44,183 nt of DNA from Myxococcales bacterium (GTDB taxonomy: Bacteria > Myxococcota_A > Polyangia > Polyangiales > Houyiibacteriaceae): the NCBI GenBank assembly GCA_020351445.1, contig CP070713.1, positions 3,217,654 to 3,261,836 on the forward strand, in the 5' to 3' direction. Below are positions 3,788 through 40,849 of the stretch, piece after piece (the first letter of the stretch is position 1; each line of letters begins with the position of its first letter). The notes under the pieces were generated by a model. The model saw nothing but the letters and a program-made list of their open reading frames with translations. It was not told the origin of the DNA and made no database searches. Both the position numbers and the translations under genes were made by a program.

Positions 3788-6100
3788 ATGGCTACGTCAA
3801 TTTTTTTCAACGGTAGGTTGATCTCGGTTCCCGGAAGCTACAGCGAAGTAGACGCTTCCGGACTCGAGCAAGTTGGACTGGGCGCGGCTGGAATTGTGGC
3901 TGTGCTCGGCACTGCGGTAGGCGGCAAACCGGTGACGGCCCTCGAATCGATCGAGGATTTCATCCGGTTCAACAAGCCGGAATCTGCGCGCCGCACGTTC
4001 CGCTCCGGGGATCTGCGCGAAGCAAGCGACATGCTTTTCGCGCCGGGCAAGGATCCGGACATTCTGGGCGGAGCCGTCGAAGTGATCGCAATGAAGGTGA
4101 ATCCCGCCACGCAGAGCGCAGCGAGTTTTGCCAACGTCCAGGGCCCGGCAATGGACGTGGAAAGCGTGGACTATGGCGCTTTCACCGAGCAGATCAACGT
4201 CGATATCCAGGACGGCACGGTGCAGGGCAAGCTCCTGACAATCACGTTTGAGGACGTGGTTGAGGCCGTGGACGATCTGGGCGGCGATGAGATTTTCACC
4301 ATGAACTACGTCGCGCCTATCGCAGACGGCTGGGCCACCATGACGGCCGAAGTCGCTGCGGGCGGTGTGATCAAGGCCAACGGTACGCGCGGCGTGGCGG
4401 GCCTGGACGGGGACGTTACGCCCCTACTCGCCCAGGGGCCTGTGCGTATCGTATCGAGCAATTCCGGCGACACCAACGACGTGGTGATCTATGGGCTGGA
4501 CGCGAGCGGCAATCCGGTCAGTGAGACGTTGACGCTGACCGGTACGGTGGCCGTGGACGGGTCGCAGGTTTTCGGCGTGGGGAAGGTGCTTGGAGCTCGA
4601 GCAATCGGGACCACGGCGGGGACCGTGACGATCAGCGATCAGGTGATCCCCACAACGATCATGACGCTCGCCGCCGGTGCGGATCAGAAAAAGGGTCTGC
4701 ACTACGGCACCGGCATGTGGGTGGGCAATGACGTGGTATCGGCCGTTGCGGACGGGGCCACGACAAAAGACCTGATCCTTGTCGGCACGTCGCCAACGGG
4801 CACAGTGATTCTCGAAAAACTGACTCTCACGGGTGCCGTGGCTGTAACCGGCTCCGCGGACTTCGCGTCGCTGACAGCGATTGTCACTGGCGAAGTCGAG
4901 GCCGCGCGGACCGTGACGCTCAGCGCGGTGGCAGTGCAGACCACGCCAAGCGTTCACGACACGCTGCAAAAGGCGATCGACTATTTCAACGCGCGCCAGA
5001 TCGTGCAGACCACGGTGCGCGGCTTTGTTGGCGTGATCGAGACGTTGGATACAGGCATGGCAGTGACGGGCCTGGACGTGAGTGTCAGTGCTCAAAACTG
5101 CTTTGGCGCGACGGTCGCCGAGTTTTACGCCGACCTGTGGGCGGTGATCAATTGGATCAACACGAATTCGGAATTGATCACGGCCAGCATGGCCAGCGGC
5201 GCGACGGGCGGAGCTCCGAGCAACACCACGAGCCCCGTCTTTCTGCAGGGCGGTGTTGAGGGGACGCCGACAAGCACGCACTGGCAGGATGCGCTGGATT
5301 GGCTGAAACGGATCCGCGTCAACACGATTGTCCCGCTGACCGGAGATCCGGCGGTACACGCGGCCGTGGACGCGCACTGCGCCTACATGGGCGGGGTGGG
5401 CCGGAACGAGCGAGACGCGGTTGTGGGCGTCCAGAATTCGGGCCTGACCGACGTGCCCACCAAGGCTGAGGCCAAGGCCGCAATCGTGGATCTCAACAGC
5501 CGGCACATTCGAGCCGTGGCCCAGGCGATTGAGCGGTTCGGCACAGACGGCACGCGCCAGGAATTCCAGCCGCATTTCCTCGCATGCGTGATTGCGGGTA
5601 TGCAGGCGGGCAGCGACGTAGGCACGCCCTTGACCTACAAATACACCAACACGCTCGCCTACCGGCAAGACTCGAGCTGGAATCCGGTGGACGACGCAGA
5701 GGAACTCGTCCAGGCCGGGCTGTGCTTCCTGGAAAATGTTGAGGGGCAGGGCCGCCGCGTGGTGCGGAATATCACGACGCATCGGAGCTCCAACAACCTG
5801 GCTTTCACGGAGGGAAGTGTCAACGAGGCCGTGAACTATGCGGCCTACAATTTCCGCACCAACATGGAATTTGCGGTGGGCCGCAAGGGCTTTTCCGGGA
5901 CCGTCAACGCCGGCAAGAGCGTAGCGCTCAACACGCTCGGGTTGCTGGTGGATGAGACAATCCTGGTGGCCTATCGGTCGTTGGCGGTGGAATTGATCGT
6001 GGATGTGATGGAAGTCGAGTGCGAGATCGCACCCGTGCTGCCTATCAATTTCGTTAAGAACACACTGCACCTTGTGACCGTTCGACAAAGCGCCGCGTAG
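3788..6100 (+). CDS. Tail sheath protein
   Basis: 770 aa. N-terminus ...LISVPGSYSEVDASGL (the sheath PGVY-type motif). C-terminal GLCFLENVEGQGRRVVRNITT matches the conserved sheath C-domain pattern. Directly followed by a tube-sized gene. Confidence 0.85.
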   Translation: MATSIFFNGRLISVPGSYSEVDASGLEQVGLGAAGIVAVLGTAVGGKPVTALESIEDFIRFNKPESARRTFRSGDLREASDMLFAPGKDPDILGGAVEVIAMKVNPATQSAASFANVQGPAMDVESVDYGAFTEQINVDIQDGTVQGKLLTITFEDVVEAVDDLGGDEIFTMNYVAPIADGWATMTAEVAAGGVIKANGTRGVAGLDGDVTPLLAQGPVRIVSSNSGDTNDVVIYGLDASGNPVSETLTLTGTVAVDGSQVFGVGKVLGARAIGTTAGTVTISDQVIPTTIMTLAAGADQKKGLHYGTGMWVGNDVVSAVADGATTKDLILVGTSPTGTVILEKLTLTGAVAVTGSADFASLTAIVTGEVEAARTVTLSAVAVQTTPSVHDTLQKAIDYFNARQIVQTTVRGFVGVIETLDTGMAVTGLDVSVSAQNCFGATVAEFYADLWAVINWINTNSELITASMASGATGGAPSNTTSPVFLQGGVEGTPTSTHWQDALDWLKRIRVNTIVPLTGDPAVHAAVDAHCAYMGGVGRNERDAVVGVQNSGLTDVPTKAEAKAAIVDLNSRHIRAVAQAIERFGTDGTRQEFQPHFLACVIAGMQAGSDVGTPLTYKYTNTLAYRQDSSWNPVDDAEELVQAGLCFLENVEGQGRRVVRNITTHRSSNNLAFTEGSVNEAVNYAAYNFRTNMEFAVGRKGFSGTVNAGKSVALNTLGLLVDETILVAYRSLAVELIVDVMEVECEIAPVLPINFVKNTLHLVTVRQSAA

Positions 6101-27125: not shown

Positions 27126-27626
27126 CTATCCGTCTGAACGAGCTCGGCCGTGACACTGGCCGCGATCCATGTTTTTCGCCAGCTTCTGCTCCATTTCGGA
27201 TGGAAGATCGATCTGCAGCCGGTGCGCCAGGGCAAACGTCTCTGCCAGGGCGAGCTCGAGACTGATGCGCGTATCCGTTTGGTTGTTGTCGCGCCATTGC
27301 TCGGTGGCATTGCACAGCCAGTGCAGAATCGACCACAGCAATACCTCGACGGGGATGAAACAGAGGCCTGCAGGATACTTGGAGGCACGGCGATCATACC
27401 ATGTGTCACGCCAGAGCGTATGCAGTATGTCGAGCAGGCGGATCGCCACGTCGGCGAATTCTTCTCCAAGGGGATCTACGCCGGTGCCGTCTGTCGCGGC
27501 GCGAGCCTCGTCGAGCTCTGTGGTGGCCAGCATGAGCTTGATCGGCAGGTTTTCCCAGCTGGGCGGATCAAAGCCGTTGTCTAGGTTCACGGCGTGGATG
27601 CTCTGAGCGAAAGAGCGGATATCCAT
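27126..27626 (-). CDS. mazG: MazG-like all-alpha nucleoside triphosphate pyrophosphohydrolase
   Basis: 166 aa. KLMLATTELDEA...LGEEFADVAIRLLDILH and QIDLPSEMEQKLAKNMDR fit the MazG motifs E..E...EE..D and K...N..R. RBS AGGGGGG. Confidence 0.7.
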   Translation of the reverse strand: MDIRSFAQSIHAVNLDNGFDPPSWENLPIKLMLATTELDEARAATDGTGVDPLGEEFADVAIRLLDILHTLWRDTWYDRRASKYPAGLCFIPVEVLLWSILHWLCNATEQWRDNNQTDTRISLELALAETFALAHRLQIDLPSEMEQKLAKNMDRGQCHGRARSDG

Positions 27627-27635
27627 TTGTCCCCC

Positions 27636-28352
27636 CTATCGTCGGCGACGGCTCTGGCGATTATTGTTCCGGGACCGGGACTGCGATCTATGCCTAGACT
27701 TGTCCCGGGCGGACTGCGCCTGGCGCCGCTCGAATTCTTGCTTGCTGATGAATTTCCCTTTTTTGTCGCGGTATTGCGTGGCGGATTGGGATCCGGAAAA
27801 AACCCCAGGGGCCTTTTTTCCGGATTGCTGCGCGGCTTGGACGCGGGCCCGGTGCGCGGCTCGATCGCGCTCGCTCTGAGCTCGGCGCCGATCATACTCC
27901 GCTGCGCTGATTGGATTGCCGCGGCGGTCCCGGTAGTTGTGCTCGTCATGGACGTTTGACTCGCGCTGCCACGTGCCCGAGGGATTCTTCTGCTCGAAGT
28001 GGCGCTTGCTCAGCATGTAACTCAGCGCGGCGCCCCCCGCGGCTCCTGCCCCAGCCGCAGCGAGAAATTTCCAGGTGTCGTTTGCCTCTTTGCTCTCGGG
28101 GTCCTTCCATTGCCATTGCCCGTCCGGGCCCCAGCTGCCGGCGGCCGGGTTGCCCACGTGATTGACGTACTGGCCAGGGGCCACGGGGCCCAGCGGTGGG
28201 GCGCCTGGGGGAACCTGGGCGGGGGCTGCTGGGGCGGCCATGGGCGCGGTGATCGTCGGCGACGGTTGCGGGGGGTCATTGCAAGCGATGGCCTGGATGG
28301 CCTGTAAAATGAACGGTGCGACCGTTAGATTGACAAAAGGATGGTTTTTCAT
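27636..28352 (-). CDS. Lipoprotein with a Pro-rich linker, a glycine-zipper segment and a tandem-repeat basic C-terminus
   Basis: Start at MKNHPF (AAGGAG 8 nt upstream). Lipobox AIAC. Gly-zipper FLAAAGAGAAGGAALSYML. Two 30-aa repeats: NYRDRRGNPISAAEYDRRRAQSERDRAAHR and QYRDKKGKFISKQEFERRQAQSARDKSRHR. The 22 upstream codons of the tracked ORF overlap the tRNA-like element. Confidence 0.6.
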   Translation of the reverse strand: MKNHPFVNLTVAPFILQAIQAIACNDPPQPSPTITAPMAAPAAPAQVPPGAPPLGPVAPGQYVNHVGNPAAGSWGPDGQWQWKDPESKEANDTWKFLAAAGAGAAGGAALSYMLSKRHFEQKNPSGTWQRESNVHDEHNYRDRRGNPISAAEYDRRRAQSERDRAAHRARVQAAQQSGKKAPGVFSGSQSATQYRDKKGKFISKQEFERRQAQSARDKSRHRSQSRSRNNNRQSRRRR

Positions 28353-28374
28353 TGGCTTAGCTCCTTTCAGATAA

Positions 28375-28443
28375 TGGCGGGGAGCATGGGAATTGAACCC
28401 ACAACGCCACCGCTGCATGGGCGTTACCCCGTGCGGACTCCCC
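28375..28443 (-). other. tRNA-like element: intact T-arm, acceptor 3' strand and CCA, but no canonical D or anticodon arms
   Basis: Minus strand: GGGGAGTCCGCACGGGGTAACGCCCATGCAGCGGTGGCGTTGTGGGTTCAATTCCCATGCTCCCCGCCA. T-arm GTGGG-TTCAATT-CCCAT. A 7-bp acceptor pairing is possible (GGGGAGT/GCTCCCC). It is only 69 nt including CCA. The + strand translation shows the GIEPTT artefact typical of antisense tRNA. Confidence 0.5.
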
Positions 28444-28525
28444 GCGTCAAAGAATGGCCGCGTCGCAGTCTACCGGTTCGAGCTCTGTCAGTCTTCTGCA
28501 AATTGGCGGGGGGGTCAGTTTGCAA

Positions 28526-28558
28526 GATGGAACCCGGATGGAACCCGGATGGAACCCG
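28526..28558. repeat. Perfect 3 x 11-bp tandem direct repeat, GATGGAACCCG
   Basis: 28526-28536, 28537-28547 and 28548-28558 are identical. Flanked by the TGCAAA/TTTGCA inverted repeat (28497-28502 / 28519-28524) and the CCGGGG/CCCCGG hairpin. Confidence 0.9.
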
Positions 28559-28691
28559 GGGGGCTCAATCCCCGGAGCCCCTTGCAACCTGTGTGCCAAA
28601 GTGTGCGGAAGTGGGGGCGGACTGCGCGGACCGCGCTTCCCCTCGTTTTTGTTGAGTTTTGCTCTGAGCGCTGCTCGAGCTCCCGGGCCCG

Positions 28692-28727
28692 TGACTCGTT
28701 TTTCTCGCTCAGGCGTTAAACCAGGTG
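28692..28727 (+). promoter_or_regulatory. Conserved promoter-like motif, copy 1
   Basis: TGACTC-N16-CGTTAA-ACCAGGTG. It sits at the head of the ORF-poor structured region. Confidence 0.5.
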
Positions 28728-29000
28728 AGGACATTCAGTCCGTCCTGACTCAGACAGATCGCGGTGAGTCGTTCGGCGACAAGTGCCGGTTGCATCGGTG
28801 AGTCGAGTGCGGCGAGGTTCGAGCCCAGTGATGGGTGTCCTCCATCCAATAGATACGCGCCAGGACAGTCGGCGAGTGACCCGCACGAGTTGCGACACAG
28901 CTAAAGGACTTGAATCGCGGTGGATGAACATACCCCGCCCTTGCCCCGGTAGAGCTGCTGGCTCAGTGAGGGGCGGGGGTGTGTAGAGAAACTGAAACGC

Positions 29001-29040
29001 TTAAATGCTTTTTAGCATTCTTTTTTTATAAAAAAAGAAG
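29001..29040. other. AT-rich tract (candidate DNA unwinding element or host-type promoter region)
   Basis: TTAAATGCTTTTTAGCATTCTTTTTTTATAAAAAAAGAAG is the only strongly AT-rich stretch I saw in this GC-rich window. It includes T7-AT-A7 and a TATAAA hexamer (29027-29032). Confidence 0.5.
29004..29027 (+). terminator. Weak AT-rich hairpin plus T7 run
   Basis: AATGCT-TTTT-AGCATT (29004-29019) followed by C and T7 (29021-29027). Confidence 0.3.
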
Positions 29041-29075
29041 GGGTCTCCACTATTACCAAATTACTAGGAGTTGCT

Positions 29076-29110
29076 GCTTTAGGGGACTCGCTTCGCTCGT
29101 CCCCTAAAGC
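29076..29110 (+). promoter_or_regulatory. Perfect 12-bp stem-loop
   Basis: GCTTTAGGGGAC (29076-29087) / GTCCCCTAAAGC (29099-29110) with an 11-nt loop, TCGCTTCGCTC. Extendable by 2-3 flanking pairs. Confidence 0.6.
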
Positions 29111-29113
29111 AGT

Positions 29114-29149
29114 AGGCCGCGCTTCGCGCGGCCTGTGTCTTTTGTTTTT
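29114..29149 (+). terminator. Rho-independent terminator
   Basis: AGGCCGCGC-TTC-GCGCGGCCT (9-bp GC stem) followed by GTGTCTTTTGTTTTT. Confidence 0.7.
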
Positions 29150-29198
29150 CGACTGGGAAGGAATAAATGGGGAGGGGTCCCAGGCGGATAAAGGGGAA

Positions 29199-29384
29199 AT
29201 GAAAATGGGAAGCAAAGAGAGGTTTCTGCGGATCAGTACGCGGGCCCTGGTGTTGGCTGGTGCCTGCATAATTGCAGGCCATCCGATGGATGAGGGCCCG
29301 CATGTGTCGCTGCTGCTGTCCTGGCTGTTTCTGGGGCTGGGCTGGGGCTTTGTGCGGCTTCTGTGGCCCGTTGCCCGGGATTGA
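29199..29384 (+). CDS. Small two-pass membrane protein
   Basis: ATG at 29199 or 29205, after AAGGGG. RALVLAGACIIAG and SLLLSWLFLGLGWGFVRLLW are hydrophobic. Third positions are mostly G/C. Confidence 0.4.
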   Translation: MKMGSKERFLRISTRALVLAGACIIAGHPMDEGPHVSLLLSWLFLGLGWGFVRLLWPVARD

Positions 29385-29630: not shown

Positions 29631-29642
29631 GCTAGAGGATTG

Positions 29643-31151
29643 ATGGGAAATACCTCGAGGTTGGTACTGCAGGCGCACAATTCCTGGACGTATGTGCTTG
29701 AGGCAGACGAGCTCATGCTGTCGGTGCTCAGCCAGGAGTGTCGATATCCGACTGAGCACGCCGAAATGATGGCCGATGGAACCTACCGGCCGCCGGCTGG
29801 CGAGCGTCCCTATGGCGGTTGGGACGGGTGGATCCGGTTGCTCAAACGGCCGCGGAGCGGGCCCCCCGCGTTGCCTACGGGGCTGCTGCCCCTGGCATGT
29901 CGCCTGGCTGCCAAGTACCAGCGGCACTCGGTGGTTGAGGACTGCCGGCAGCGGCCGGACGAGGAAATGCCCGAGTTCCCCGCGGTGAGCCTGCGTGACT
30001 ACCAGGAGCAGGCTGTCCGGGCGGCCATCCACGCGGGGCGGGGGGTCCTCGATCTGCCCCCCAGGGCCGGCAAGACTCGAATTGCTGCGGAGCTCCAACG
30101 GCGGCTAGGTTTCCCCACCGTGTGGCTGGCGCCAACCGAGCGGATTGTGGCGCAGACGGCGGACGTGCTGACCGAGCATTTTGGGCGGAACTATGCGCGC
30201 GCGCTCGAGTGCGCGGCAGACGCGGACATGATGCGGGACCGGCGGATCGTCGTCATGACTGCGGCGATGGCCGCGCGGCTGCCGGCGGACTGGTATCTGT
30301 CGCGGCAGATGATCCTGGTGGACGAGTTCCACCACGCCGCGGCCAAGACTTACAGCCGCGACGTGTGGCCGAAGATCGATCACATCTTCTGGCGCTTTGG
30401 GATGACGGGCACGTTTTTCCGCTCGGGCCATGATGCCCTGGCCATGCATGCGCTGCTCAGCCAGACGGTCTACCGGATGACGCCTGGGCAGCTGCTCGAG
30501 CAGGGCCACCTGGTGCCGACGCACTGCGTCTTTCTGCCCGTTGACGCGCCGCGGCTGCGGGGGGTGGGCAAGGGCTGGCACCAGGGGATGGGCACGGCCG
30601 GTATCCATGAGCACGAAATGCGGGCCAGGATGGCCGCAGACGCCGCTCTGAGCCTCTGCCGGCTCGGACGCAGGGTGCTAGCCCTGGTGGGCACCAAACG
30701 CCAGGGATACGCCCTGCAGGGGCTCCTAGAGGGGGGATTGCCCCGTCCTCCCCCAGGCGCTGAATTCCGAAGTGCGGAGTTCCTGAGCACCGATCGAGCT
30801 CGGCCAGTGCGCCAGCGTGTGATCGATAGCTTCCTGGCCGGCGGGGAGGTACGGGTGTTGATCGGGACTTCCCTGCTCGGGGAGGGGGTGGATCTTCCTA
30901 GCGCGGATGCGCTTGTGTACGCGCGCGGGGAACGTGCTGAGGTGAGCTTGATCCAGAATGCCTATCGCGTCGGGACGGCGCAGCCCGGGAAGCGGGCGGC
31001 GATCCTGGTGGACTTCGCCGACAGGCATCACAAGAACCTGCTCGGGCACAGCACAGAGCGGCTCCGCCTGTACTACCGTGAGCCTACGTTCAGTGTCACG
31101 GTGCTCGAGCATCCCAGCCAGCTCGAGCCGTGGGTTGCGCAGATCCCTTGA
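29643..31151 (+). CDS. SF2 DExH helicase, UvsW-like
   Basis: Walker A PPRAGKT, DEFH box (ILVDEFHHAA), MTGTFFRSG, LIGTSLLGEGVDLP and QNAYRVGT. The N-terminal domain has GGWDGWIRLL...PTGLL, like the UvsW N-domain. ATG at 29643 after GAGGA. Confidence 0.8.
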   Translation: MGNTSRLVLQAHNSWTYVLEADELMLSVLSQECRYPTEHAEMMADGTYRPPAGERPYGGWDGWIRLLKRPRSGPPALPTGLLPLACRLAAKYQRHSVVEDCRQRPDEEMPEFPAVSLRDYQEQAVRAAIHAGRGVLDLPPRAGKTRIAAELQRRLGFPTVWLAPTERIVAQTADVLTEHFGRNYARALECAADADMMRDRRIVVMTAAMAARLPADWYLSRQMILVDEFHHAAAKTYSRDVWPKIDHIFWRFGMTGTFFRSGHDALAMHALLSQTVYRMTPGQLLEQGHLVPTHCVFLPVDAPRLRGVGKGWHQGMGTAGIHEHEMRARMAADAALSLCRLGRRVLALVGTKRQGYALQGLLEGGLPRPPPGAEFRSAEFLSTDRARPVRQRVIDSFLAGGEVRVLIGTSLLGEGVDLPSADALVYARGERAEVSLIQNAYRVGTAQPGKRAAILVDFADRHHKNLLGHSTERLRLYYREPTFSVTVLEHPSQLEPWVAQIP

Positions 31152-31162
31152 CGCGGACTCGC

Positions 31163-31198
31163 TGACCCGTTTTTCTGCGCCGAGCGTTAACCCAGGTG
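31163..31198 (+). promoter_or_regulatory. Conserved promoter-like motif, copy 2
   Basis: TGACCC-N16-CGTTAA-CCCAGGTG, 12 nt after the helicase stop and 83 nt before ATG 31282. A 9-bp hairpin (GCCCGACCG/CGGTCGGGC) lies in the putative leader. Confidence 0.5.
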
Positions 31199-31281
31199 AC
31201 AGGGCGACAGCCCACAACGGATAGCCCGACCGTCGCCTTAGCCCCGCGGCGGTCGGGCACATTTGCGAAGGAGCTCATAGG

Positions 31282-31680
31282 ATGACGTTGGAGATCCGAG
31301 AAGTGGCGGGCATGGATGACGCGGAGCGTCTGCAGGCACAGGAGCGCGTGGCGATCAAGTCGAGGGAGCAGCTGCTCGCGTTTCTGCATGAGAGTGAACG
31401 GGATTGGCTGATCTTCAACACGCGGCACCTGATCGAGGCGATCCCCTTTCCGCAAGGGGTCCTCATGATGCAGCAGATCGTTGCATGGTATCGCAATCAC
31501 CGGGCCCAGGTGGGCACAGGCCGCAAGGTGCCCGGGAAGCACCCGATCACGGGTGAGCCGATCCACGTCGAGGACATGCACGGCGAAGCCCTTGAAATTT
31601 CGGAGGCTGAGCAGGCGATCCGATTCCTTCTGGACATGATCCGGACCCGTGATCCAAGCTGGACGCTGGCTCGGTTGTAG
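31282..31680 (+). CDS. Hypothetical protein
   Basis: 132-aa ORF with RBS GAAGGAG. I recognised no motif. Confidence 0.55.
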   Translation: MTLEIREVAGMDDAERLQAQERVAIKSREQLLAFLHESERDWLIFNTRHLIEAIPFPQGVLMMQQIVAWYRNHRAQVGTGRKVPGKHPITGEPIHVEDMHGEALEISEAEQAIRFLLDMIRTRDPSWTLARL

Positions 31681-31763: not shown

Positions 31764-32405
31764 ATGGAAACCACCATGGAGGCCGTACTATGCTCGGATT
31801 TCAACCATTGGCGGAATCAGACGTGGCATACACAGCAATTGCGCAAGCAAAAGCCGATCCGAAATGTGTCTTTGAAAAAGGGCCAGCCCATTTTTTCAGC
31901 GCTCAATCGCTGGTGCGCCGAAAGGAAAATAGACCCCCGCCGGTGGCTTTATTTTCGGTTTGCGTCTCGTCATTGGAAATACGCCCCGCCCCTAGATCAG
32001 CTAGTCCCTGCCCCGCGCAGCGAGAAAAAAGCGTTGATTGCTTATCGGCTGCTGGGTGAGACTCCAGCATTTTCCGATCGAATTTACAGCGAAATACAGT
32101 ACCAGCGAGACGAAACCGGGGTTTCCTGGGATGTGAATAGGGATATTTCCCACCTGGCCGAAGCAATCAAAAGACGATACCTCGCAACGAATGACTGGCA
32201 GCGCTGCATGAGCCGCATGCAGGATCAAACCTACGGTTTCCATCCGAAAAGTCGAGTGTGTGGGCGTTGCCCCGCGGCGAGCTCTTGCGCTGAGCAGCTG
32301 CAACGAGGGGTGCCTTTCGATATCGTGGCGCTACGCCGGGGGGATGTGTCTCTGCGTTCATGCTACGTGGCCGCAGAGAGGGGGACACATGGAGCAAGGC
32401 GTTGA
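31764..32405 (+). CDS. Hypothetical protein (Trp/Arg-rich, C-terminal Cys pair)
   Basis: I prefer the ATG at 31764 (GAGGGA upstream) over the TTG at 31719. No family recognised. Overlaps the DnaB-like start by 17 nt. Confidence 0.5.
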   Translation: METTMEAVLCSDFNHWRNQTWHTQQLRKQKPIRNVSLKKGQPIFSALNRWCAERKIDPRRWLYFRFASRHWKYAPPLDQLVPAPRSEKKALIAYRLLGETPAFSDRIYSEIQYQRDETGVSWDVNRDISHLAEAIKRRYLATNDWQRCMSRMQDQTYGFHPKSRVCGRCPAASSCAEQLQRGVPFDIVALRRGDVSLRSCYVAAERGTHGARR

Positions 32406-35766: not shown

Positions 35767-35771
35767 GTTGC

Positions 35772-35806
35772 TGACTCGTTTTCTGCGCTCGAGCGTTAGA
35801 CCGGGA
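35772..35806 (+). promoter_or_regulatory. Conserved promoter-like motif, copy 3
   Basis: TGACTC-N16-CGTTAG-ACCGGGA, 6 nt after the sigma-like stop and 38 nt before ATG 35845. Confidence 0.45.
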
Positions 35807-35844
35807 AAGGGCGGAGGTGGTAGGGGGGGACAATCGGAGGTGAA

Positions 35845-36789
35845 ATGGAAGCGTTACCCTATCAGATCACGGGGGGGCGGTGGCTTGTCACTGGGCCCCT
35901 ACCGAACGACTGCCAGCTGATCGAGCGCAATGGGCAGCAAATTTTCACAGACGCCGCGGGGAATCCACAGCCGGATTGTTTTGGGGTTTTCTGGGAAGCC
36001 GTTGGGCCTGAGACGGACACCGAGAATTGCCGTGATTGCGATCTCGAGCCTATCTGTCGCATGGCCACGGTGCATTACCGGATGCCAGCAGCCCTAAAGG
36101 GACTTGGCGGGCCGCTCGGGGAGCATACCGCCGCTGCGTTGGCGCCCCAGCTTGAGCTCAATTGTGAGGCTGTGCGTGCCCTGGTGGCGGATTGGCGGGC
36201 ATTGAATGAGCCCGCACAGGGTGTGCAGCCGAAGCGGCCGAAGCGAGCTCCGCCGGCCGCTGGGGGGGAAAAGGCGGGACCCCCGGAGCCGGGCGGAGGG
36301 CCCCCCGAAAACCCTATGTGCGCCCCGTCTGCTCAGATTGTGGCGGGCGGGGCTACGCAGCCGGCGACAAAAATACTCTATGCCCGACTTGCCAAGGTTT
36401 GGGATGTCCACCGGCGGATCTGGATCCGCCCGTGGGAGGCTCGCAGCCAATGGCAGAAGGAACGCCAGGCCAACGAATGGATCCGCCGGTTGCTGCCGGG
36501 AATGATTCTGCGGCGGTCGTTTGCGGGCCAGTGGTGGACGGTGCAGGTGCACAGCCATGCGTATCAATTCCAGGGCCGGCGGTATCCGACGCTGACCGCA
36601 GTAACGGGGGAGGTGTTTTCGCAAGTCCCTGTCCGCCGCCGTACCCAACAGCAAAGGACCATTCATTGCCCGAGTCACGTGGCCAGGTTTTGGTGCCTGC
36701 CAAAGCTTCTAGAGGTGGATCGGAGGAAGGTTGCTGGGGTTGCAGAAACGATGCTCGCGCGCTTGCACAACAGGTTTTGGCGCGAATGA
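35845..36789 (+). CDS. Protein with a Cys-rich N-terminus and a DUF2924-like C-terminal domain
   Basis: LLPGMILRRSFAGQWWTVQVHSHAYQFQGRRYPTLTAVTGEVF matches the DUF2924 pattern (L.pGt.L.R.w.G..h.V.v....f.y.G..Y.SLSa.A..ITG), from memory. Confidence 0.45.
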   Translation: MEALPYQITGGRWLVTGPLPNDCQLIERNGQQIFTDAAGNPQPDCFGVFWEAVGPETDTENCRDCDLEPICRMATVHYRMPAALKGLGGPLGEHTAAALAPQLELNCEAVRALVADWRALNEPAQGVQPKRPKRAPPAAGGEKAGPPEPGGGPPENPMCAPSAQIVAGGATQPATKILYARLAKVWDVHRRIWIRPWEARSQWQKERQANEWIRRLLPGMILRRSFAGQWWTVQVHSHAYQFQGRRYPTLTAVTGEVFSQVPVRRRTQQQRTIHCPSHVARFWCLPKLLEVDRRKVAGVAETMLARLHNRFWRE

Positions 36790-38926: not shown

Positions 38927-39435
38927 GCGAATTGGACATGGACGCCTATGTGTCGCGCCTGCAAAACATGCCCAGCTGGAATATCCACAGTCTGGACAAT
39001 GAAGGGTCGACCACGTTTCCGTGGTTTCAGGTGCCGCACGATATCTGGCGTGCGCTGGTGATCAACGAATTGAACGCGCAAGCGGAGGCCATGACGATCG
39101 GCGCGGAGATCCAGAAGTGGGGGCGGCTGACTGCGCTTGCGCGCCGCATATGGCAAGTCGAGGAACGCGGATATCGGTCGTGGCGGTCGGCGTTCCTGTT
39201 GGATGCGATGAATCCGGACGGCAAGCCGGACGGGTGGAAAAAGCCGACAAAGGATCAGGTTGAATCAGCCTATCGGGTGGACCCTGACTACAAGCTCTGG
39301 CAGGTGCGGATCGAGCGGGCGGAGGAAGCATACCACGCGACGGAGTGCATGGTTGACGCGCTGCGCGCAAAGAAGGATGCGCTGATCCGTTTTGCTCCGA
39401 CCTGGCGGGATGCGGGAGCCGCCACGGCCGTCTGA
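38923..39435 (+). CDS. Hypothetical protein
   Basis: ATGA-coupled to the polymerase stop, about 170 aa, Trp-rich. No motif recognised. Confidence 0.5.
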   Translation: MSELDMDAYVSRLQNMPSWNIHSLDNEGSTTFPWFQVPHDIWRALVINELNAQAEAMTIGAEIQKWGRLTALARRIWQVEERGYRSWRSAFLLDAMNPDGKPDGWKKPTKDQVESAYRVDPDYKLWQVRIERAEEAYHATECMVDALRAKKDALIRFAPTWRDAGAATAV

Positions 39436-39468
39436 CTCGTTTTTCGGTCCCGAGCGTTAAACCAGGTG
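39433..39468 (+). promoter_or_regulatory. Conserved promoter-like motif, copy 4
   Basis: TGACTC-N16-CGTTAA-ACCAGGTG. The TGA of the motif is the stop codon of the preceding gene. It lies 22 nt before ATG 39491. Confidence 0.5.
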
Positions 39469-39490: not shown

Positions 39491-40849
39491 ATGACAAGCT
39501 ATCAATATCCGCCAGCCGGTCAAATGCCGGCCCAGGCGCCCCAGCAGCCCTATCCGCAGTATGCGCAGCAGCAGCCCCAGGGAGCTCCGCCGAGCAATGG
39601 CGGGATGCCTGGCTGGCATGAGGCCAACGACGAGCAGGCGCGGCAAGCGTATGCCACGGCAGCGGCAAGCGTGGGGAATTTCGGACCGAATCCCCAATTT
39701 CTGAAGATCCCAGGGCCGCGTGGTCAGCTGGTTTGGGACAACAGCGTGCCCCAGGGCTACAGCGCGAATTGCGTGATCCGAGTCATGCCCCCGTGGGCCC
39801 AGGGCAAGACAGTTTTCGTTGAGAGCAAGACGATCTTCTACAAGTCCCACAAGTACCCCCGTGGGCGGGTGCTCGGCTACCAGGGGGAGGATAGCCTTTT
39901 CATGCAGGCTATCCAGCGGGCCGCGGACAGCGGCGACGAACGGTTGCAGCGGGTCGCCGCCGACTATGGCCGCGTGCGGACGCAGTATCTCTACAACGTG
40001 ATCGATCTGTCGCATCCGGACAGCCACACGGGGCAGGACGGCGTGATGCGCCCCTATCTGCTCGGCGCTGGCCGCCAGCTGCACCGGGATATCGGCGACT
40101 TGGTTGAGGCCCGCGGCGGGATCAATCGGATCGTGTCCCCGGTGGCAGGCCGTCCGGTTCGCTACACGAAAACCAAGACGGGCCCGGAGCCGATGAATGT
40201 GGAATATGGGGTGATCGATCTTGAACCCCAGGAGCTCCATTCCTATTTCCATCCCATTTTGCAAAACCTGTGGGATCTCGAGGCCCAGATCCCGGTGCCG
40301 ACGCAGGATGACGTGCTCGAAGCGATCCGGGAGCTCGGGCTGCCGGATCCACGGCAGACAATGGCCCAGGTTCCGGGGCAGATGGCAGGGGCGCCCCCGC
40401 AGTCCTACGGCATGAGCTATCAGCCCGATCCCAATCCGCCGCACGGCAGTCCCTACCAGGCCCAGGCGGCTCCGCCCCAGACATGGGCCCAACAGCCCCC
40501 AGGCCCCCCGCAGCAGCCCGCGGGAGCGCCACCGGCTCCTGTGCCCTTCGCCGAGTCACAGATGCAGCAGCAGCCCGCACAGGGGGGCTGGGGGGCACCA
40601 GTCAATCCCGCAGCAATGGGTCAGCCCGCGGCTCCGCCGCCAGCCCAGGGAGCTCCGCCGCAGCAGTGGGCAGGGGCCGCGGCTCCGCCGCCACCGGCAA
40701 TGCCGCCAGCGCAGCAGCAAGCGCAGCAGTGGGGAGGGACTGCGGCTCCGCCGCCAATGCCGACGCAGCAGCCGCCGCCAGTGACCTCGGGGCAGGCTCT
40801 ACCGGGTGGGTATCAGCCGGCACCGGGGGGGCCACCTAACCCTTTGTGA
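39491..40849 (+). CDS. gp32-like ssDNA-binding protein with Pro/Gln-rich N- and C-terminal low-complexity tails
   Basis: The core FLKIPGPRG...NCVIRVMPPW...TQYLYNVIDL...RPVRYTKTKTG parallels T4 gp32 (LKLDNAG..AVIRFLP ... SYWANILVV ... FVLKVKQVSG). The tails are rich in P, Q and A. Confidence 0.55.
   Translation: MTSYQYPPAGQMPAQAPQQPYPQYAQQQPQGAPPSNGGMPGWHEANDEQARQAYATAAASVGNFGPNPQFLKIPGPRGQLVWDNSVPQGYSANCVIRVMPPWAQGKTVFVESKTIFYKSHKYPRGRVLGYQGEDSLFMQAIQRAADSGDERLQRVAADYGRVRTQYLYNVIDLSHPDSHTGQDGVMRPYLLGAGRQLHRDIGDLVEARGGINRIVSPVAGRPVRYTKTKTGPEPMNVEYGVIDLEPQELHSYFHPILQNLWDLEAQIPVPTQDDVLEAIRELGLPDPRQTMAQVPGQMAGAPPQSYGMSYQPDPNPPHGSPYQAQAAPPQTWAQQPPGPPQQPAGAPPAPVPFAESQMQQQPAQGGWGAPVNPAAMGQPAAPPPAQGAPPQQWAGAAAPPPPAMPPAQQQAQQWGGTAAPPPMPTQQPPPVTSGQALPGGYQPAPGGPPNPL

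Follow-up and report, generated by a model that had tools for sequence, protein, structure and literature searches.

A conserved non-coding element at the head of the replication operon in a clade of uncultured myovirus-like phages: candidate leader and candidate origin

The stretch of DNA analysed here, referred to below as the window, comprises 44,183 nucleotides (nt) and belongs to a larger myovirus-like genome of ~61% G+C. Our main finding is that an element at positions 28691-29199 of the window has homologues in ten other phage contigs, in each case at the same position ahead of an operon for an XPB/UvsW-like helicase, between that operon and the end of the late or accessory genes. Judged by the comparisons described below, the element is non-coding, and it consists of a promoter-like motif, a variable 5' part, a conserved hairpin (P1), an AT-rich island, two GC hairpins (A and B), and a hairpin (P5) directly 5' of the ribosome-binding site (RBS) of the first operon gene (Table 1). 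An earlier note on this DNA, made from the sequence alone, had proposed either a discrete non-coding RNA or a regulatory leader. The sequence bears out all the features that it listed, some of them with corrected detail. We consider it quite possible, if still short of probable, that the element acts in cis as an untranslated leader of the replication operon and gates either read-through or processing.

The ten relatives (designated by our own L numbers) and the window form three subfamilies, namely A (window, L023, L024, L025), B (L004, L027 and L096, the last partial) and C (L001, L097, L098, L005), with helicases that range from 97.5% (L023) down to 53% (L005) identity to that of the window. 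A profile search first found a single homologous region, in L004 (E 4e-11); L023, L024, L025, L027, L096, L097 and L098 were reached via the neighbouring lipoprotein and helicase genes, and L001 and L005 by reading upstream of the helicase. Helicase relatives at 45-52% identity (L019, L002, L006, L008) have different upstream regions, and the lipoprotein homologues L028-L032 were discarded on account of their unrelated contexts. The clade is without a close cultured relative: its nearest phage proteins are <30% identical, and 3.5 kb around the element gave no megablast match among GenBank phages. Related contigs reach 97-109 kb.

The absence of a convincing open reading frame (ORF), as claimed in the earlier note, is borne out by the pattern of substitutions and indels. 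Relative to L024, substitutions are distributed evenly over codon positions in both small ORFs that exist mechanically (28/27/25 on the minus strand, 20/21/19 on the plus strand), and both frames are broken by indels of 1, 4 and 7 nt in comparisons with L024, L025 and L023; the L023 element is 96.5% identical to that of the window, yet carries a 1-nt insertion. A conserved translated small ORF, named in advance as one of the observations that would overturn the earlier proposals, is absent by this codon-position test against L024. In six-frame comparison the relatives share only short peptide matches, which fall in several frames and on either strand, and an independent gene call on L100, a 15-kb contig 99.9% identical to the window, placed no gene in the element. 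A gene caller did put a 154-amino-acid ORF partly over the element in L023, but because substitutions show no third-position excess, indels break the frames, peptide matches are scattered and L100 has no gene call, a small protein gene at 28783-28986 (+) or 28716-28931 (-) is hardly credible.

The head of the element is formed by copy 1 of a 37-nt motif that occurs four times in the window, always on the + strand and within the replication module. When both strands of the window were scanned with a weight matrix built from 13 copies from 5 phages, the four copies scored 39-57 bits, no other site exceeded -3 bits, and no copy was found in the 26 kb of structural genes. Two hexamers within the motif, GTGACT and GTTAAA, lie 18 nt apart. 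With the exception of copy 1, the copies occupy short gaps, 23-84 nt ahead of replication-module genes. The motif also heads the element in L023, L024, L025, L004 and L027, and these same phages carry a second copy after the helicase gene; a scan of IMG/VR for the motif returned no locus beyond the contig of L004. The motif behaves like an early or middle promoter, an activity predicted here from its sequence and placement, and transcription would start a few nt downstream of copy 1, near 28733-28737.

At the other end of the element, hairpins A and B combine an apex that is shared across relatives, GC-TNC-GC, with stems that differ completely between phages. Hairpin A, formerly described as a perfect 12-bp hairpin, is present but longer, with 14 Watson-Crick pairs (29074-29087 with 29099-29112). 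It keeps a conserved 13-mer, CTCGCTTCGCTCG; the same apex stands on quite different stems in L024, L004, L027, L096 and L005, and in L023 a one-base deletion in one arm is compensated by one in the other. No other extended hairpin with a GCTTCGC apex occurs in the window. An IMG/VR scan with the hairpin-A 15-mer GCTCGCTTCGCTCGC proved a dead end, since it returned at least 120 loci of which none is related and most are stemless. For hairpin B, the GC hairpin and U-tract previously reported were found again as the strongest terminator-like match in the 40 kb scanned: positions 29112-29136 supply 11 pairs, 8 of them G-C, and the tail GTCTTTTGTT, which together have the GC hairpin and U-tract expected of an intrinsic terminator, and the remaining terminator-like matches occur at shuffle level (13 found vs 15 expected, and 23 vs 16). 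In a set of nine B-type hairpins, pairing covers 92.6% of cells, both sides have changed in 7 of 9 pairs and the apex is invariant; these figures are descriptive only, because the set was selected for having stems.

The T-rich tail is far less constant than the hairpins. Hairpin A never has one, and within the first 10 nt after hairpin B the number of T residues is at least 6 in the window and L023, L025, L004 and L027, 5 in L024, and 3-4 in L096, L001, L097, L098 and L005. Hairpin B keeps its position in all relatives and lacks the tail in about half, so that the hairpins, and not termination, would be what the clade conserves; the former description of the pair as tandem terminators holds for hairpin B of this phage but not for hairpin A or for about half of the relatives. 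Only 20-25 nt separate the end of the hairpins from the helicase ATG in L001, L097, L098 and L005, and the operon is therefore only transcribable through them. The gene upstream of the element in this subfamily ends in a hairpin of its own, placed before the motif and T-tailed in L097 and L098. Read on the minus strand, hairpins A and B of the window both display GCGAAGC, and most of the 19-20 hairpins of the family display GCGAAGC, GCGGAGC, GCGTAGC or GCGCAGC there, the exceptions being the second hairpins of L001 and L005 and the first hairpin of L098. The GCGNAGC or GCGNNAGC apex that characterizes mini-hairpin signals is accordingly present on one DNA strand.

Between the motif and the GC hairpins, the best conserved structure is P1. 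The "long-range 9-bp stem" of the earlier note is real and longer than stated, with ~13 pairs conserved in ten relatives. Its 8-bp core, CCCCGCCC/GGGCGGGG, is nearly invariant, with one compensatory change from G-C to A-T in L005, and the flanking pairs vary by subfamily and stay complementary (ACAUA/UGUGU, CGCU/AGCG, ACAC/GUGU). Modest support for this pairing comes from folding energies, since P1 with its own flanks reaches -10.0 kcal/mol vs -7.6 with flanks exchanged across subfamilies (p=0.02), and on average P1 folds 2.6 kcal/mol better on the + strand than on the - strand. An unpaired TGCCCC at 28942-28947 is conserved. The apical hairpin of P1 was rejected as covariation evidence, the inner segments being no better than shuffles (mean z -0.45), and an IMG/VR scan for the P1 pattern gave 64 loci, of which the related ones are the contigs of L004 and L001 only.

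The 5' part upstream of P1 measures 90-260 nt across relatives and differs by subfamily, being GC-rich in A and B and CA-rich with ARN repeats in C. A consensus fold of the 5' 200 nt was set aside as weak (-15 kcal/mol from four sequences). As previously noted, two copies of the 9-mer GGTGAGTCG lie in the region, but they are of no value as a signal: a repeated 9-mer arises in 36% of dinucleotide shuffles, and this one is not kept in L024 or L025. As a separate observation, the leaders of subfamily C (L098 1480-1530, L097 2790-2830) contain runs of ARN triplets, e.g. AAC AAC AGC AAU AAC AGC AAC, a pattern bound by the distal face of Hfq, and the phages of this subfamily encode, two genes past the helicase, a protein of 68-73 amino acids with a weak Pfam match to Hfq (L097 5065-5271). 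The window has neither the triplet runs nor an Hfq-like protein.

The 49 nt that precede the ATG at 29199 had been described as holding no obvious promoter. Weight-matrix and promoter scans agree, with neither a second motif copy nor a sigma-70-like site between the hairpins and the first ORF, but the interval is not empty, for it is largely occupied by the conserved P5 hairpin. The box CGACTGGGAAGG is kept in subfamilies A and B, with its partner CCCAG(T/G)CG following after loops of 5 to ~70 nt, and in subfamily C GACTGG lies inside the ribosome-binding region of the helicase. An 11-codon mini-ORF (29167-29202, MGRGPRRIKGK) also lies here, with a good RBS and a TGA that overlaps the ATG at 29199; being frame-shifted in L023 and absent in L024, it is unlikely to be functional.

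A comparable arrangement recurs behind the helicase gene, where an alignment and consensus fold of five phages define a hairpin downstream of motif copy 2. This hairpin has 13-14 pairs, 6 of them with compensatory changes, contains G-U pairs on the + strand, is followed by a T-run in L025, L027 and L004, and adjoins the next RBS. A putative promoter followed by a stable hairpin and an RBS is thus a repeated device in these phages, and its recurrence at copy 2 argues for an RNA-level role of such leaders. The copy-2 loop, YWAGCCCC, shares GCCCC with the internal loop of P1. Relatives in subfamilies A and B retain the exposed GCCCC at 28942-28947 (UGCCCC) and at 31240-31245 (UAGCCCC), except that its last C differs in three instances within B. 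The shared segment might be contacted by one and the same protein or RNA, or might pair alternatively with the G-rich 3' arms.

The AT-rich island is conserved in a different manner. The AT hairpin and T7 run seen earlier are present and lie inside the most AT-rich 60-mer of the window (28980-29039), which has 75% A+T against a mean of 38.9% (sd 7.1%), ~5 standard deviations (sd) above it. In 8 of 9 related loci the corresponding island likewise takes the top rank for A+T, with values of 63-88%. It measures 70-110 nt across relatives; its composition is conserved and its sequence is not. Repeats occur within it in some relatives (AGCTAAA four times in L004, AATACT repeats in L098), as do GATC sites, of which six fall within 80 nt in L001 and L097, where the clusters are significant (p ~4e-4 and p ~0.009, respectively). 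Clustering of GATC was rejected as a general property, since it reaches significance in no locus other than L001, L097 and L008 and the window island has no such site. Over the whole window GATC occurs 9.7 times per kb, ~2.5x the 1/256 expectation, with none in the island. A 13-nt segment of the AT palindrome, 29004-29016, is inverted between the window and L023 (AAATGCTTTTTAG vs CTAAAAAGCATTT), whose elements are 96.5% identical, probably by a hairpin-mediated event, and L023 gains a GATC site near it. Upstream of the helicase in L008 (helicase identity 45%), positions 4380-4990 belong to ~800 nt of direct repeats, with a 30-nt iteron in four copies, AGATCAGACTAGATC units, CCAGAT nine times, the palindrome TTCCAGCAAATTTGCTGGAA four times, and GATC repeats, a region that looks like an origin plus operator region.

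Table 1. Positions of the element, its parts and related features in the window
Feature	Position	Strand	Description and basis
Motif copy 1	28691-28727	+	GTGACTCGTTTTTC-N9-GCGTTAAACCAGGTG; repeat family D3, weight-matrix scan
Variable 5' leader part	28728-28927	+	Non-coding by comparison; spans ORFs 28783-28986 (+) and 28716-28931 (-)
Hairpin P1	28928-28984	+	Basal stem ACATACCCCGCCC (28928-28940) / GGGCGGGGGTGTGT (28971-28984), variable top; kept in ten relatives
AT-rich island	28985-29073		Palindromes AATGCT/AGCATT (29004-29019) and CTTTTTTT/AAAAAAAG (29020-29037), then purine-rich box and TAGGAG; composition
Hairpin A	29074-29112	+	14-bp perfect stem, 2x2 internal loop, apex GC-TTC-GC; apex shared on differing stems in relatives
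Hairpin B and T-rich tail	29114-29149	+	AGGCCGCGC-TTC-GCGCGGCCT (29114-29134), tail 29135-29149; resembles intrinsic terminator
Hairpin P5	29150-29186	+	CGACTGGGA (29150-29158) with TCCCAGGCG (29178-29186); directly 5' of RBS
RBS and first operon ORF	29191-29384	+	AAGGGG, ATG 29199; 61 amino acids, predicted membrane protein; ORF list
Helicase	29640-31151	+	Domains ResIII and Helicase_C
Motif copy 2	31162-31198	+	Ahead of ORF at 31282
Copy-2 leader hairpin	31162-31258 (including motif)	+	31224-31236 with 31246-31258, loop CTTAGCCCC; alignment and consensus fold, five phages
Motif copy 3	35771-35807	+	38 nt before ORF at 35845
Motif copy 4	39432-39468	+	23 nt before ORF at 39491

The genes around the element bear on its interpretation. 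Genes for tail sheath, baseplate and tail fibre occupy 1-26.6 kb on the + strand, followed on the - strand (27126-28352) by two accessory genes, one pyrophosphatase-like and one lipoprotein-like. From 29199 onwards, again on the + strand, come the 61-amino-acid ORF, which is also annotated on the independent contig L100, a zinc-ribbon ORF, and the superfamily 2 (SF2) helicase, a relative of XPB/RAD25 and T4 UvsW. By tblastn this helicase shares 21-24% identity with uvsW of T4-like phages across 86-96% of its length, and among its PDB matches XPB/RAD25 (1.5e-16) comes ahead of UvsW (2oca, E 5e-10). The module further encodes a DnaB-like helicase, a weakly DnaG-like primase, a family-A DNA polymerase, a UvsX-like recombinase and an SbcD-like nuclease.

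In the leader scheme that we infer from sequence, conservation and analogy, with its predicted promoter activity, transcription start, termination, regulated read-through and any participating factor, a phage-specific promoter (motif copy 1) would start transcription near 28735. The resulting RNA would run for ~400 nt through the variable 5' part, P1, the AU-rich spacer and two very stable GC hairpins. Because hairpin B carries a U-rich tail in this phage, a fraction of transcripts should end near 29140-29150, and the ~410-nt RNA so formed would be either incidental or an off-state under regulation, in the manner of lambda pR'-tR'. Transcripts that read through would cross P5 into the 61-amino-acid ORF, the zinc-ribbon ORF, the XPB/UvsW-like helicase and the rest of the module; the hairpins would gate this read-through, or mark and stabilize a processed 5' end, and either step would tie expression of the replication genes to a phage or host factor. 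We rank the leader first because the motif, the non-coding status, the retention of hairpins where termination is not retained, and the recurrence at copy 2 call for the fewest assumptions. Of the two proposals in the earlier note, the one in which the replication genes depend on passage of the hairpins also fits best with the promoter-like motif of a conserved non-coding element, with the lack of a second promoter site in the scans, and with the spacing in subfamily C. Several observations nevertheless weigh against a leader. About half of the relatives have no T-tail after hairpin B, and no antiterminator-type protein was detected among ~30 window proteins scanned (Pfam, PHROGs, NCBIfam). 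An RNA role does not explain why the A+T-rich spacer should be conserved in composition only, or why GATC clusters occur in L001 and L097. The GC-TNC-GC apex is not known to be unusually stable as RNA, and hairpins A and B are devoid of G-U pairs. The complement of this apex, GCGNAGC, is instead a known extra-stable DNA mini-hairpin (PMC13037366).

These DNA-level features lead to a rival that is possible but on the whole doubtful, namely that P1, the AT island and the two hairpins make up an origin of lytic replication that transcription from the motif promoter would activate or prime; such an origin may coexist with a leader. The AT island would serve as the unwinding element, at which the transcript would form an R-loop or just open the duplex, the template (minus) strand hairpins with their GCGNAGC apex would be entry signals for the DnaG-like primase and the DnaB-like helicase, and leading-strand synthesis would proceed rightwards, in the same direction as all transcription. 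An origin would account for the first rank of the island in A+T, both in the window and in most related loci, for its composition-only conservation, and for the short palindromes or tandem repeats and significant GATC clusters (L001, L097) that it contains. It would equally suit the perfect Watson-Crick palindromes of stems A and B, the variable middle base of the minus-strand apex, and the position of the element at the head of a module with two helicases, a primase, a polymerase and a recombinase. T4 oriF and oriG, in which a phage promoter is combined with an AT-rich unwinding element, provide a precedent (PMC3016281). This phage encodes UvsW-like and UvsX-like proteins, and in the more distant L008 the corresponding position is taken up by the 800-nt array with its iterons and GATC repeats. 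The core of the element, however, has yielded neither iterons nor an initiator protein, the window island is free of GATC, and the conserved 213-amino-acid protein encoded next to DnaB gave no informative fold match. The gap from promoter to island is ~290 nt in this phage (130-290 nt in the family) as opposed to the ~100-bp minimal origins of T4, the cumulative GC skew has no turning point at 29 kb, and the T-tail, the placement of P5 beside the RBS and the + strand bias of P1 all look like RNA-level features. The earlier reading, partly supported through its leader alternative, had missed the pointers to a DNA-level origin given by the AT island, the template-strand apex and the position at the module head. 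Leader, operon gate and origin might even be one device, in which promoter transcription would open the AT island, template-strand GCGNAGC mini-hairpins would serve as primase or polymerase entry sites, and the GCCCC of P1 would bind a factor shared with the GCCCC loop of the second leader; we regard this combination as rather unlikely.

Less likely still is a discrete, abundant, trans-acting RNA of ~410 nt (~28735-29145) that would terminate at the tandem hairpins and have its target in the host or the phage, with the operon served by another, unrecognized promoter. Such an RNA would draw on the promoter-like motif, on the conservation of the element in relatives, on the strongest terminator-like hairpin of the window, and on a structure z-score of -3.3 against shuffles. 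The minus strand, however, folds with an even stronger z of -5.3, and the z-scores therefore reflect palindromes and do not single out one strand. With the hairpins lying against the start codon of the helicase, subfamily C has no room for a promoter, and neither the window nor nine relatives match an Rfam family. The discrete-RNA proposal of the earlier note is further weakened by the 5' 200 nt, which are poorly conserved and differ between subfamilies, by hairpin A, which never has a T-tail, and by the loss of the tail of hairpin B in half of the relatives.

Among characterized systems, lambda pR'-tR' ("6S RNA") with Q, lambda N/nut and HK022 put share with the element the order of promoter (a putative one here), untranslated leader, strong terminator-like hairpin and operon. 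As in lambda nut and HK022 put, a conserved RNA hairpin (here P1) lies between promoter and terminator, and as with lambda nutL and nutR the design is found at two promoters of one phage. The element nonetheless differs from the lambda and HK022 systems in having no sequence or Rfam similarity to them and no detected Q/N-type protein, and from pR'-tR' in that replication genes and not late genes would be gated and that the T-tail is not kept across the family. The lambda pR'-tR' leader is 194 nt long, vs ~400 nt here, where there is also an AT island. Membership in the lambda N/Q or put systems, to which the earlier note had compared its read-through case, could not be shown. Rfam gave no gathering-score match in the window or nine relatives and nothing relevant at E<=5 in 28300-29300, the presence of put or nut models in its library being unconfirmed, and no antiterminator family, including a Q-family antiterminator beside the promoter, was found among the ~30 proteins scanned, which do not comprise every ORF of the window.

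At the DNA level, one likeness is to T4 oriF (uvsY) and oriG (34), in which a phage-specific promoter is followed by an A+T-rich unwinding element. The unwinding element in T4 is of arbitrary sequence, R-loops are removed by UvsW, and the origin transcript also expresses the downstream gene (PMC3016281), as is proposed here. A UvsW-type helicase, expected of a phage with a T4-type origin, is encoded in the window (at 21-24% identity only), and the motif, a putative promoter, and the AT island are both present and conserved, 130-290 nt apart and not adjacent. The T4 origins span ~100 bp with the unwinding element beside the promoter, whereas here the island is flanked by conserved GC hairpins and the polymerase belongs to family A. 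The primary origin of T7 combines promoters phi1.1A/1.1B, an AT-rich region and the RNase III site R1.1 at the head of the DNA-metabolism genes. The element resembles it in its putative promoter, AT stretch and hairpin at a module head and in the recurring order of promoter, hairpin and gene, and differs in that the window revealed no single-subunit RNA polymerase and that its motif bears no relation to T7 promoters. The GCGNAGC mini-hairpin has been reported at the complementary-strand origin of G4, at RSF1010 ssiA and at N4 promoters (PMC13037366). The element resembles these in having two adjacent GCGAAGC-apex hairpins on the template strand beside an easily melted AT-rich stretch. In RSF1010 oriV, a GC-rich block is followed by an AT-rich block and then by the hairpin signals. 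ssiA and ssiB, however, lie on opposite strands, whereas both hairpins lie on the same strand here; N4 promoter stems have 5-7 bp vs 9-14 bp here, and neither a RepB'-type primase nor an N4-type polymerase was detected.

The element is a new family of sequence and structure, and both of its candidate mechanisms are known phage designs and not a new kind of system. In this clade of uncultured ~100-kb myoviruses it stands where the replication module begins, and it supplies a putative promoter consensus for early or middle genes, a point at which the switch to replication may be controlled, and a candidate origin. Were the DNA-level reading true, GCGNAGC mini-hairpins would extend from single-stranded DNA phages and plasmids to large double-stranded DNA phages, and were leader and origin one device, tailed double-stranded DNA phages would have a new origin architecture that couples the firing of replication to replication-gene expression. 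If only the RNA-level reading is true, the element is one more promoter-proximal attenuator, useful for annotation and unsurprising. In either case it constitutes a well-defined, alignable non-coding family absent from Rfam.

Several further features of these phages may be recorded. The 213-amino-acid protein (31764-32405), conserved and encoded immediately upstream of the DnaB-like helicase, has invariant Cys and His residues at C148, H160, C166, C169 and C175. Searched against the PDB, its profile gave nothing better than a weak match to the zinc-binding N-terminal domain of DnaI, a helicase loader (E 0.13), and its AlphaFold model (pLDDT 77) gave no Foldseek match better than E 0.47. The helicase genes of L004 and L024 are interrupted by inteins, that of L004 (~4990-5990) with a Hint domain and an endonuclease-like insert and that of L024 (764-2671) with a Pfam PT-HINT match; the helicase gene of the window has no intein.

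Upstream of the element, TGGCACACAGGTTGCA at 28583-28598 on the - strand matches the sigma-54 promoter consensus TGGCAC-N5-TTGCW exactly, as no other site in the window does; promoters of this type are uncommon in phages. The site points leftwards to the lipoprotein-like gene (28352 to 27636) and is kept in L023 and, as TGGCACACCTCTTGCT, in L024. Between it and the lipoprotein gene lie three tandem 11-nt repeats, ATGGAACCCGG (28527-28559), with four copies in L023 and four or five ATGRRACC units in L024; their spacing of one helical turn suggests a protein-binding array. A tRNA-like piece at 28378-28444 on the - strand, outside the element, has a 7-bp acceptor stem, a GGTTCAATTCC T-arm and an aberrant middle; an ARAGORN scan found no tRNA, and the Rfam tRNA-Sec model scored 22.8 bits (E 0.08) on this piece, a weak match and the sole one from Rfam near the element. 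L023 holds an ORF for an 87-amino-acid CopG/BrnA-like antitoxin at the same spot, which for this reason is taken to be a variable insertion spot.

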